From Patescibacteria group bacterium (GTDB taxonomy: Bacteria; Patescibacteriota; Minisyncoccia; Phycocordibacterales; UBA9973), in assembly GCA_038058445.1 (NCBI GenBank), contig JBBUBB010000022.1, forward strand, positions 1 through 27,954: a stretch of 27,954 nt of DNA. The letters are read 5' to 3'. How positions within the stretch are numbered: the stretch's first letter is position 1; every line of letters starts with the position of its first letter. The notes beneath the pieces are model-generated. The model saw nothing but the letters and a program-made list of their open reading frames with translations. It was not told where the DNA came from and made no database searches. The translations under genes were made by a program, and so were the position numbers. Below are positions 9,626 to 27,835 of this stretch, piece after piece.

Positions 9626-11587
9626 CTATGGACACGGGGTGATTTTAATAACTTGAATAGTTGTTTGGTTGTTATTATTAAAAACAACTTTCTCAATAGG
9701 ACCAGAAGTGTCGGCTCCAGTAGTATTTGCACAGTGGAAGGTTCCATCACTATCAGTAATTTGAACCGACCCTGAATCATCCATATCCACATTGACAAAT
9801 AAGTCATAGGCCCCGGGGTCGGCTGTAAACAATATTTCTCCTGGGTCATTAAGGAAGATCGGATCCGGATTTGGATTAACCACGCCATTCACACCAGCTG
9901 AAAATAAATCTGCCCCAGCAAAGCTGTGTAAAATTGGTACTATCTCGTCAATCCCAGCGCTGAAATCAACAGTAAATGTTTGCGGGAGTGGAGGATTTGT
10001 TGGGACATTTACATTATGAAGGACTGATTGGCCGGTATAGGAAGGTAAACTAGGTCCTACAGAGATAACCCCTGATGGGGGATTAAATATTTGGACTGGA
10101 TTATTATTATTCAAATTTATAGTTATAGCACTCAAGGATACATCTTCATCAAAATTATTATTATAAGAGACCACACTTCCGTCTATATTCATCGGATCAC
10201 CTTGACTATATGTTGAGCTCCCTGGGTTATTAACATTAGCGACATTTACTACTACATAAACATTACCTTGCGCCCCAATAGGCGGGTAAGTGTAAGCTTG
10301 AACCGATGAGAACGACATGAGGGTAACAATAAATGCAACCACTGCCAGCGGTGTAGTAATATTTTTATTTATTTTTTTCTTTTTCATATACTTTCCTACA
10401 AGAATGATGCCTAATAATATTAATATAATAAGTAATGCCCCTTTTACTCCACCAAATGTCCCACCGAACTCTTTGACTGAGGTTGTCTTTATATCAAATG
10501 TTTTCTCATCCAAAGTCATGCCTGATTTGTTTTTAAGGGAAACTGTAATAGACGGATTAAAACATGGACGCTTTATTGAGACCTCAATATTGCTTTTAAA
10601 GCCATTTATTTCATCAACACTGGTTTTGCCACAAAGTGCTCCTTTATCAGTTTTGATTACAACATCAGCAAAGGTCGGGACAGGCGGTGCAGACCAAAGA
10701 AGTGTTAGATTTGCCTTGTCTCCTGCCCTGTAATAATCCTTATCAGCTGAAACATTGACTATGGTCGCAGTAGCCCCACTGACACTGTATCTAACTACTA
10801 CGCTATTTGACTGTCCCTCTCCAAATGTGACTTGGGTTACATATATTTGTGGCTTTCTACCCACTGGTAAAGTAAGTGCCACAATCTTTTTTTCTCCAGC
10901 TTTGAAGGATATTGGTGCTACGTCCCCGCCTGTAACTTCAGCTTTCTCGCCACCGAGAGTTCGGTAATATGTTTGATACGAAGGAATAAAACTTAGCACT
11001 CCTGCTGAAGTATTTTGTGCTGTACAAGAAAGTTTGAGTGATTGATTACTACTCAACACCGGGCTCTCTGAAAGGGAGTGAGACTTTTTTTCGTTTGAAC
11101 CAACAATACTAGTAGAACAAGACTCTGGCGCGACGCTTATCCCTTTTTGACTAGCCGTGAAAGTCACATCCCCTACACTAACAACTCCAAAAGGAAATCC
11201 AACATCGTTATTACTAAAAAGATAAAGAGAGTACGTACCGGAAAGAGTTGCAGGTGCGACATACACTATACTTTTTTGTGTTTGGGAATTTTCAGCCAGA
11301 GTTAGTGCTTCATCATAGACCTTCTCATCAATAACAATATTTCTGTTAACTTTAGAATAAAGCCTAACACTATACTTTACCCCTGTTTGCACCCCCTTAC
11401 CATTAGTAAGTAGGAACGAGACATTAACTACGCTGCCAATTTGGTTTGCGATCTTGGCTCCTTGAATGTTTACATTAGCTACTGTAGCCATTTGCGGAGC
11501 TTTTGTTTGTGCTAGTGCGCTACGAATAGGGGTAACGAGTACACCGACACATAAAAGACTAAGGGCAATGTATTTAAATAGTTTCAT
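9626..11587 (-). CDS. Secreted/membrane-anchored hypothetical protein with beta-rich domains, a mid-protein TM helix and a second internal signal-peptide-like segment
   Basis: N-terminal signal ending SALA. TM segment GALLIILILLGIILVG at about aa 383-398, followed by MKKKKINKNITTPLAVVAFIVTLMSFSSVQA at aa 401-431. Confidence 0.8.
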   Translation of the reverse strand: MKLFKYIALSLLCVGVLVTPIRSALAQTKAPQMATVANVNIQGAKIANQIGSVVNVSFLLTNGKGVQTGVKYSVRLYSKVNRNIVIDEKVYDEALTLAENSQTQKSIVYVAPATLSGTYSLYLFSNNDVGFPFGVVSVGDVTFTASQKGISVAPESCSTSIVGSNEKKSHSLSESPVLSSNQSLKLSCTAQNTSAGVLSFIPSYQTYYRTLGGEKAEVTGGDVAPISFKAGEKKIVALTLPVGRKPQIYVTQVTFGEGQSNSVVVRYSVSGATATIVNVSADKDYYRAGDKANLTLLWSAPPVPTFADVVIKTDKGALCGKTSVDEINGFKSNIEVSIKRPCFNPSITVSLKNKSGMTLDEKTFDIKTTSVKEFGGTFGGVKGALLIILILLGIILVGKYMKKKKINKNITTPLAVVAFIVTLMSFSSVQAYTYPPIGAQGNVYVVVNVANVNNPGSSTYSQGDPMNIDGSVVSYNNNFDEDVSLSAITINLNNNNPVQIFNPPSGVISVGPSLPSYTGQSVLHNVNVPTNPPLPQTFTVDFSAGIDEIVPILHSFAGADLFSAGVNGVVNPNPDPIFLNDPGEILFTADPGAYDLFVNVDMDDSGSVQITDSDGTFHCANTTGADTSGPIEKVVFNNNNQTTIQVIKITPCP

Positions 11588-25496: not shown

Positions 25497-25531
25497 ATAG
25501 CCCTATCCGCCAGCTGGCGGAGGGCTATTTT
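25497..25531 (+). terminator. hup terminator whose upper stem is the palindromic-repeat core
   Basis: ATAGCCC-TA-TCCGCCAGCTGGCGGA-GGGCTAT-TTT. Confidence 0.75.
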
Positions 25532-27172: not shown

Positions 27173-27201
27173 TTGACAGCCCCCGAATAAGTGAGTAGTA
27201 T
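27173..27201 (+). promoter_or_regulatory. Sigma70 promoter of the second receiver-like gene
   Basis: TTGACA-N17-TAGTAT. Confidence 0.65.
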
Positions 27202-27217
27202 CAAAGAAAAAAGTACC

Positions 27218-27562
27218 ATGATAAACCACGCTATTACCGAGGAAGTGTTGATGTTGACCTTCTATAGTAACAACTTCCCTATGGCCACAGGGATACCACT
27301 TGAAAAAATAAAGTTAGGCGACCCAAGGGATACAAAGGGGATTAAAAATACCATCAGAAAGCAAGAAATTAAACTGGTGGTAATAGATGGGGCTATCTGG
27401 CTCCCAAGGATTTCCGAGACTGTTGCAGTGGTAAAAAATATTAGAAGAAAAAGACTGCTGAACATTATTATTTGTATAGTCAGCAACCGCGACTTAGAGA
27501 TTGCGGATACAGTCTGGGAAACAGACCCAACTGGGGTACAAAAGTACCTAAAAACTGCCTGA
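27218..27562 (+). CDS. Small protein with atypical receiver-like segment (start corrected to 27218)
   Basis: IKNTIRKQEIKLVVIDG (alpha2-beta3-Asp), an amphipathic helix and IIICIVS (beta4). The track start at 27191 falls inside the promoter. Confidence 0.5.
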   Translation: MINHAITEEVLMLTFYSNNFPMATGIPLEKIKLGDPRDTKGIKNTIRKQEIKLVVIDGAIWLPRISETVAVVKNIRRKRLLNIIICIVSNRDLEIADTVWETDPTGVQKYLKTA

Positions 27563-27584
27563 GCCCACTATGGGCTTTTTATTT
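27562..27584 (+). terminator. Intrinsic terminator
   Basis: AGCCCA-CTA-TGGGCT followed by a T tract. Confidence 0.65.
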
Positions 27585-27619
27585 TGTGTTGTACACCGCG
27601 AAGCTCTGTAGGAGCGTAG

Positions 27620-27640
27620 TGGTGCGGGATAAGGGAGTCG
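27620..27640 (-). repeat. Duplicated 3' end of tRNA-Gly carrying CCA (att-like direct repeat)
   Basis: 27622-27640 is identical to 27764-27782 over 19 bp. The minus strand reads CGACTCCCTTATCCCGCA-CCA. Confidence 0.9.
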
Positions 27641-27763
27641 GTCACGAGTATTTTTCTGATGAAAAATCTCGCTACCCCGCCTCGCGCCAGTCGCGCTCCG
27701 GCTTTCTCCTCCCTGCCTTCACAAACAAAAACACCCAGAAAGGATCTGAGTGTTTTTGTTTGT
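27637..27763 (-). mobile_element. Putative non-autonomous three-hairpin mini-element or island remnant at tRNA-Gly (copy B)
   Basis: Bounded by 19-bp direct repeats 142 bp apart. Contains a 20-bp hairpin, a GCGC-GACTG-GCGC hairpin and a TTTTTC-ATCA-GAAAAA hairpin. A relative lies at 8073-8155. Confidence 0.55.
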
Positions 27764-27764
27764 G

Positions 27765-27835
27765 TGCGGGATAAGGGAGTCGAACCCTTCACCACAGTTT
27801 GGAAAACTGTTATTTTACCGATAAACTAATCCCGC
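27765..27835 (-). tRNA. tRNA-Gly (TCC)
   Basis: GCGGGAT TA GTTT ATCGGTA AAAT A ACAGT TTTCCAA ACTGT GGTG AAGGG TTCGACT CCCTT ATCCCGC A. 71 nt, with CCA not encoded in place. Confidence 0.96.

Follow-up and report, generated by a model that had tools for sequence, protein, structure and literature searches.

A structured, gene-less 142-bp unit between duplicated 3′ ends of a tRNA-Gly gene, and its relatives across an order of Patescibacteria

The window, which is the whole 27,954-nt stretch of DNA that was analysed, corresponds to contig C22 of a 578-kb genome assembly (100 contigs, 40% G+C, 30 tRNA genes and one tmRNA). In size and gene content, this genome matches an ultra-small member of the candidate phyla radiation. 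At the end of the contig, ARAGORN and Rfam identify two tRNA genes on the minus strand, encoding tRNA-Pro and tRNA-Gly(UCC). The tRNA-Gly gene ends with A73-C74 followed by A-C, without an encoded CCA. A preliminary description of this DNA, made from the sequence alone, had claimed that the 3′ end of tRNA-Gly is duplicated from C56 onward. Consistent with that claim, the 19 nt from C56 to C74 (CGACTCCCTTATCCCGCAC on the tRNA strand, GTGCGGGATAAGGGAGTCG on the plus strand) recur as an exact direct repeat 142 nt apart (Table 1), and the chance of an exact 19-mer recurring so close is negligible. Its reading of the two ends is likewise borne out, as the gene runs ..GCA-CAC and the distal copy ..GCA-CCA, with the CCA at 27622-27620 on the minus strand. 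The open reading frames over the 142-bp insert are spurious frames only, its neighbours are a receiver-like gene and tRNA-Pro, and no integrase gene lies within it or at its edge. Across this genome, encoded CCA is absent from 24 of the 30 tRNA genes and complete in six; the CCA-less genes mostly end N73-C-A-A, some N73-C-A-C or otherwise, so that at most the first C of CCA is encoded.

Table 1. Features of the tRNA-Gly(UCC) locus and of a short-form relative in the window
Feature	Position	Strand	Basis
tRNA-Gly(UCC) gene	27764..27835 (ARAGORN/Rfam start 27764/5)	-	ARAGORN; Rfam tRNA, 63.3 bits
Proximal tail: functional tRNA 3′ end C56-C74, first repeat copy	27764..27782	-	repeat search
hp1: 20-bp hairpin with 5-nt loop, directly 3′ of the tRNA	27720..27764	-	repeat search, 95% complementary
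Degenerate mirror arm GUG..GG.AGGGAG, inverted tail copy	27709..27722	-	fold; comparison with full mirror arms elsewhere
Conserved 66-nt core, three-way junction	27640..27706	-	model R1, 89.1 bits, E 2e-20; covariation
Distal tail: second exact copy of the tRNA 3′ end	27622..27640	-	repeat search; G021 match covers query 1-333
C75, A76 and the 34-nt CCA-trailer motif CTACGCTCC..GCTTCGCGGTGTACAACAC	27586..27621 (motif 27619-27586)	-	sequence comparison
Bidirectional terminator hairpin, shared with the convergent gene 27191-27562	27561..27585		CCA-trailer runs into it
Short-form core relative	8098..8152	+	model R1, 21.6 bits, E 0.01 over the genome

Read on the tRNA strand, the spacer consists of hp1, a degenerate mirror arm, and a core, after which the distal tail begins. 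Hairpin hp1 is terminator-like, with an A-run, a GC-containing stem and a U-run, and it is the same hairpin that lies 3′ of the distal tail in the relative G020. In the core, helix P1 has an internal loop (GGA/GA). Hairpin 3 (GCGC-GACUG-GCGC) comes next, followed by a GG joiner and then by hairpin 4 (GGUAGCGAG..CUCGUGACC), which is long and bulged. In the fold predicted by RNAfold, the mirror arm of the window copy pairs with the distal tail and thereby closes the three-way junction, at −42.7 kcal/mol (z −3.7; none of 200 shuffles as good). The spacer had been described as almost wholly made of hairpins, in agreement with the 20-bp hairpin and the three-way junction found here. The two tetramers pointed out at the feet of hairpins fared differently: GGAG, at the first core hairpin, is kept in the family, whereas GTAG, at the second, occurs only in the window and in the relatives G021 and G011, the family consensus there being GTCG. 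Two further ideas about the fold were dropped. Kissing of the hairpin 2 loop AACUGCUU with the CAGCAG loop of hairpin 4 would require complementarity that the copies do not have (mean 2.17 nt, versus 2.38 nt for shuffled loops), and likenesses to hammerhead, k-turn and group II domain V motifs, judged by eye, concern loops that vary between copies.

The tRNA-Gly locus is one of several of its kind in this genome. Checking all tRNAs of the genome for 3′-end duplications, as had been proposed, revealed six further tRNAs (Gln-UUG, Gln-CUG, Asp, Glu-CUC, Arg-GCG and Ile-GAU) whose own 3′ end is repeated 150-413 nt downstream, with spacers that have motifs in common. Similar modules also follow tRNA-Val-UAC, tRNA-Val-GAC and a partial tRNA-Lys on contig C12, so that at least eight other tRNA genes carry modules, six of them with a duplicated tail. 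In the general layout, hp1 follows the tRNA tail, then come an inverted tail copy and the core, and the module closes with a direct tail copy that begins at the T-loop CGA. Specifically, the inverted copy complements first the 3′ strand of the acceptor, frequently together with the discriminator and flank, and then the 3′ strand of the T-stem and the T-loop; a second hairpin often lies between these two parts. The cores fall into type B (Gly, Asp, Val-UAC) and type A (both Gln, Glu, Arg, Val-GAC, Lys). A covariance model, R1, built on the type-B core gives 14 matches in this genome at E values up to 1. In the tRNA-Gln module, a copy of the perfect 18-20-nt palindrome TATCCGCCAGCTGGCGGATA replaces a hairpin tip (C8:10853-10872); this palindrome is found at 25504-25521 of the window and at more than 30 other places in the genome, C8 among them.

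The family extends through the order. The core is present in 82 of 101 genomes (one per family, this genome included), with up to 50 copies per genome and 83-91% identity across families, and in 6 of 150 other genomes from the rest of the phylum. We examined 35 copies from elsewhere in the order; 21 of them come immediately after a tRNA, on its strand, and many of the tRNA-linked copies have recognisable direct and inverted tail copies. A few copies occupy the ends of rplK- or rplL-like genes or lie within partial copies of tRNAs, many are away from tRNAs, and arrays with truncated second units occur at loci L028 and L030. In an Rfam 15 search of the window, only tRNAs reach the gathering score and nothing meaningful covers the spacer at E values up to 5; we found no description of the module family in the literature. 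Two of the copies inside partial tRNAs have a mirror-image layout in which the 5′ part of the tRNA is duplicated: one core lies at the T-loop of a partial 5′ copy of tRNA-Glu just upstream of the intact tRNA (L034, G027 C2:139750-139950), the other in the D-arm of a partial 5′ copy of tRNA-Ile, likewise upstream of the intact tRNA (L041, G029 C3:1830-2000). The 50-copy genome holds many composite units (G058 C7: L092, L095-L097, L099, L100), in which the hairpin AATTGC-GATAAGTGAA-GCAATT and, after it, a second full core are set into another core, at its junction or in its hairpin 3. Such units may be either multi-branch structural variants, which they resemble more, or nested insertions.

The fold is conserved by compensatory change. 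Of the cells in 70 distinct copies, 97.7% pair, and double changes are seen at 22 of the 23 base pairs; 0 of 500 shuffles pair as well, and slid controls come nowhere near. Furthermore, one G.U pair is kept in 63 of 66 copies, while another pair appears as G.U, G-C or A-U. Because a G.U pair would be a C.A mismatch on the opposite strand, the selected structure is on the tRNA-sense strand, either as RNA or as single-stranded DNA.

Strand specificity of this kind is equally expected of a functional RNA, and the module could be a structured RNA of the tRNA 3′ trailer, made by read-through or by transcription of its own. Its mirror arm would pair with the tRNA's own 3′ strand or with the distal tail, and its three-way junction would bind a protein or ligand, so as to control tRNA folding, 3′ processing or termination; alternatively, RNase P and RNase Z would release a tRNA-like small RNA. 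This reading is in line with the strong covariation, with the good fold of the window copy, with a mirror arm that tracks the functional tail, and with the position of the core, which, where it accompanies a tRNA, is always downstream on the same strand. In addition, one RNA-library contig covers the core, hp1 and the 3′ part of the tRNA of a relative, although it may be contaminating DNA. On the other hand, hp1, which precedes the core, has the look of a strong terminator. Within the genus, the same tRNA may lack a module or have a different one, which is hard to square with a needed function, and genomes with up to 50 copies hold many of them away from tRNAs. We consider a trailer RNA, the main rival of the cassette reading given below, possible but doubtful. 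If the modules act as RNAs, one in three tRNA genes of a 0.6-Mb genome would carry a structured trailer able to pair with the tRNA's own 3′ strand, a layer of tRNA biology so far unknown in bacteria that have shed most regulation.

A comparison of tRNA-Gly(UCC) genes within the genus shows that modules are present, absent and exchanged at this one tRNA. G021 and G011 have the same module as the window, G005 and G009 have other type-B modules with full mirror arms, G020 has a type-A module, and G004 has hp1 and the mirror only. Empty alleles, which had been called for as a check, exist in G013, G014 and G017, none of them syntenic with the window. Together with the other tRNA-linked copies and the differently filled alleles, they agree with the earlier proposal of a non-autonomous unit that resembles an insertion and has the duplicated tRNA tail at its borders.

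In some copies the two tails differ. In G020 the distal tail is degenerate, CGACTCCCTTATACCGTACAC, and is followed by the hairpin ACAAACAAAAACACTCAGA.., which is the one found 3′ of the gene in the window; because the window's post-gene hairpin follows it there, the G020 distal tail looks like the older gene end. Between the window and G021, the match (91%) breaks off exactly with the final base of the distal tail, and the tail is therefore a unit boundary. The post-gene hairpin of the window, which looks ancestral in G020, suits a module placed after the terminator as well as one that carries its terminator along, and the insert boundaries given here for the window are accordingly provisional. 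A copy at an rplK-like gene (L035) adds a coding-sequence example. Its proximal end reads GTG GAC GTG AAA TAG and its distal end GTT GAT GTG AAA TAA, three differences that are all synonymous or stop-to-stop, and its mirror arm ACGTCCAC fits the proximal end; because the differences are synonymous only, the distal copy evolved as coding sequence in another lineage. The comparison was extended to 29 copies with unlike tails (a mis-placed row for L035 being left out): in 15 of them the mirror arm agrees more closely with the proximal tail, in 2 it agrees more closely with the distal one, and 12 are ties. In many copies the distal tail has decayed badly, with the proximal tail intact. The mirror arm thus tracks the proximal tail, and tail, hp1 and mirror arm behave as a single unit, in the manner of a long palindrome into which the functional tRNA end is built; the distal tail is a remnant.

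Another family member lies elsewhere in the window. The preliminary description had likened the spacer to a relative at 8073-8155, and the relationship is real but distant by covariance-model score (Table 1). The parts of this short form are a hairpin 3 whose stem is changed but whose GACUG loop is kept, GAG, and a hairpin 4 with the CAGCAG loop, and the whole sits between complementary arms of about 30 nt (about 8068-8186). Four similar short forms exist in the genome, three of them with a near-identical core. The cores of the C73 and C51 copies are practically identical, yet the C51 arms are wholly different while still complementary, and the arms were therefore not inherited with the core. 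As a group, the short forms (C73 about 2445-2565, C51 1-115, C37 about 1500-1615, C6 about 2560-2675) have identical or nearly identical 55-nt cores and differing, mutually complementary arms of about 25-30 nt that start AAGCGAG, such that the core looks set into the tip of a long terminator-like hairpin.

Short forms with identical cores and with differing complementary arms that resemble pre-existing terminator stems would also suit a passive intergenic repeat of the REP or MITE kind, located at hairpin-rich gene ends and serving at most as a terminator or insulator. The tail duplication would then be a by-product of replication slippage or template switching on a long palindrome. The high copy number points the same way, as do core-less long palindromes that reach into the tRNA end, e.g. 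at tRNA-Leu(GAG) in this genome and at tRNA-Gly in G004. However, 83-91% core identity across families together with compensatory changes indicates selection on the fold, and the synonymous-only differences at the rplK end point to an imported foreign gene end rather than to local slippage. We regard a passive repeat as unlikely.

The CCA that follows the distal tail calls for a separate explanation. The three non-syntenic empty alleles of the genus end CAC-A, as the proximal copy does. The preliminary description had taken the distal copy for the original, CCA-bearing 3′ end of the gene; its distal position is supported by G020, where the distal tail looks older, but its CCA-bearing nature needs amending in view of the empty alleles. 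A CCA-trailer like the one in the window is found 3′ of tRNA-Ile(GAU) and tRNA-Phe in this genome, 3′ of the distal tail in G011, and at three places away from tRNAs, and G021 is without it. The distal CCA belongs to this separate trailer motif and does not speak for a displaced native end. The CCA-trailer spans about 34-45 nt and consists of ..CCA-CT(T/A)CGC, a small hairpin and GCTTCGCGGTG(T/C)A.A.CAC. Copies lie at C96 about 10950-11000, C100 about 2701-2745, C26 about 1582, C28 about 5730 and C87 about 2088; the motif directly follows three CCA-encoding tRNA ends, and its 3′ part can pair with the ..CACC of the tRNA end.

With two identical tails in the window, the distal one with CCA, the tRNA precursor might in principle pair its 5′ half with either 3′ end, so that the 142 nt would be an excisable intron-like or processing module, as had been suggested. 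This is very unlikely. Changes in the distal tails of G011, G009 and G020 would break tRNA stems, distal tails decay in relatives while proximal tails stay intact, and the CCA belongs to a separate motif. Moreover, we know of no bacterial splicing system that acts at the T-loop.

We also looked for an enzyme that might mobilise the modules. The genome encodes two tyrosine recombinases, three large serine recombinases, one reverse transcriptase and two Y1-type open reading frames; in this assembly, which is 92% complete, there is no match to IS110 (PF01548), and TnpB was not found. A RAYT/Y1 transposase was discarded as mobiliser, as it is present in 53 of 82 element-positive and 10 of 19 element-negative genomes, and three high-copy genomes (G052, G043, G112) lack a Y1 gene. 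A large serine recombinase was discarded likewise (55 of 82 versus 10 of 19 genomes). No protein gene recurs beside the copies, the sole cluster of open reading frames being frames through the element itself. The preliminary description had invoked an integrase; no such link is apparent, and neither Y1 enzymes nor large serine recombinases track the element. A further candidate, a primer-binding site at which the mirror arm would bind the mature tRNA 3′ end and prime reverse transcription, was rejected on the grounds that the mirror complements the gene and its flank (CAC..), not CCA. The two Y1-type open reading frames (C89:1965-2192, plus strand; C86:5371-5607, minus strand) are about 230 aa long and carry a weak Y1 domain of the IS200/RAYT type; such open reading frames are common across the order and do not track the tRNA-tail modules.

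Direct repeats of a tRNA 3′ end are also what a genomic island or prophage would leave as an attL/attR scar after internal deletion, and the preliminary description had offered a collapsed island as one explanation. This genome also has three large serine recombinase genes that lie right against the 3′ ends of tRNA or tmRNA genes. This explanation is contradicted by the family data and is highly improbable, as the spacer is a conserved, covarying and structured module in 82 of the 101 genomes of the order, found at hundreds of loci and at different tRNAs. The three recombinase genes themselves are frames of 506-549 aa (C16 about 2850-4360, minus strand; C90 about 100-1560, minus strand; C64 about 5500-7150, plus strand), each of which runs convergently and directly up to the 3′ end of a tRNA (Glu-UUC, Ala-UGC) or of the tmRNA. 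These three loci are likely integrated elements, and the contigs break soon after them.

In our best reading, the modules form a family of cassettes that lodges in the 3′ ends of conserved genes, mostly tRNAs. We put the probability that the 142 bp in the window are such a gene-less cassette, exchanged by recombination in the duplicated tail, at about one half. The unit would bring a replacement tRNA tail, starting from the T-loop CGA, together with the terminator-like hairpin, the mirror arm and the 66-nt core. The old tail would be pushed downstream, where it would mark the end of the unit and be free to decay, and insertion would cost the cell little because the tRNA stays intact. Gain and loss would both proceed by recombination inside the duplicated tail, with a crossover near the T-loop CGA. 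Against this reading stand the enzymes tested, which do not track the element, and the lack of a recurrent neighbouring protein gene; moreover, assembled contigs from public data showed no tail-to-tail deletion or circle, and a single 109-nt skip of low support in them does not match the tail repeat. In single-stranded form, tail, hairpin and mirror might pair up as a duplex replica of the target, the core lying alongside as a recognition structure, though we hold this with low confidence. By analogy with integron attC sites and the CTX phage, in which a recombinase acts on a folded att site, an enzyme supplied in trans, possibly a Xer-type tyrosine recombinase of the host such as those on C45 and C13 of this genome, could act on such a structure; this suggestion, too, is speculative. 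An enzyme-free alternative would be DNA uptake followed by recombination over short homology.

The cassette reading can be set against known elements. Genomic islands and prophages use tyrosine or serine integrases to insert in tRNA and tmRNA genes, with attL and attR duplicating the 3′ part of the tRNA. The modules resemble them in having a direct repeat from the T-loop to the gene end, in an imported tail that restores the gene and displaces the old one, and in being present at or missing from the same tRNA in related genomes, although no syntenic pair is available for the window locus. Unlike islands, the modules are 120-190 bp long, carry no integrase and no cargo, contain a conserved folded core and an inverted target copy, and do not co-occur with the accessory recombinases tested. 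Integron attC cassettes and CTX-phage att sites are, like the modules, small, often gene-less and stacked in arrays, and the recombination site would in each case be a strand-specific fold used by an enzyme in trans. The attC boxes are arranged R′′/L′′..L′/R′, as RYYYAAC .. GTTRRRY, and are used by the IntI integrase. The module boundaries, in contrast, read ..GTGAC|CGA.. rather than GTTRRRY and show no R/L box pattern, as judged by inspection; the module target is the 3′ end of a tRNA or ribosomal-protein gene and not attI, and the arms are copies of the target.

MITEs and REP/REPIN elements (Correia, ERIC and RUP; REP with RAYT) are similarly short, multi-copy, non-coding and hairpin-rich, and the short forms of the module have complementary arms. 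The module arms, however, match the local gene and differ for each copy, there are no terminal inverted repeats common to all copies, and the apparent target duplication comprises 9-19 nt or more of a gene end. With respect to REP/REPIN and RAYT, the Y1 enzyme does not track the module and the GTAG foot is not conserved. As in tRNA-like small RNAs such as mascRNA, menRNA and the tRNA-like domain of tmRNA, the mirror arm and tail of full copies (Glu, Arg) can form a helix resembling an acceptor/T-arm; the acceptor mirror is degenerate in the window, and, unlike in those RNAs, the mirror matches the gene and its flank instead of the mature CCA end. The bridge (seek) RNAs of IS110/IS1111 and the guides of IS200/IS605 share with the modules a structured non-coding part complementary to the target, but the fold is different and no DEDD recombinase was found in this genome. 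Among the known families tested, the module family belongs to none. We tentatively suggest that it represents a new class, in which a gene-less mobile cassette with a folded single-strand attachment site relies on a host recombinase, or in which the same fold acts as an RNA that gates tRNA maturation.

If they are mobile, the modules would be the smallest known tRNA-targeting units, coding for nothing, and one would ask which ubiquitous host activity they exploit. As mobile cassettes with a folded att site, they would be 140-nt units able to settle, replace one another and form arrays at the 3′ ends of genes for tRNAs and ribosomal proteins throughout an order, and their target replica and scaffold would constitute a naturally programmable pair. 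The modules also explain contig breaks, 'pseudo-tRNA' fragments and apparent att sites in metagenome-assembled genomes, in which they should be masked or annotated.

Two loci of this genome bear on whether a unit at a tRNA gene can have contents of its own. At C96:10590-11000, a small GIY-YIG gene is flanked on both sides by copies of the tRNA-Ile(GAU) 3′ end, so such units can hold genes. Another GIY-YIG gene is located upstream of tRNA-Asn, beside a partial 5′ copy of that tRNA (C23:9326-9850). Both may be gene-bearing cassettes or homing units at tRNA genes.
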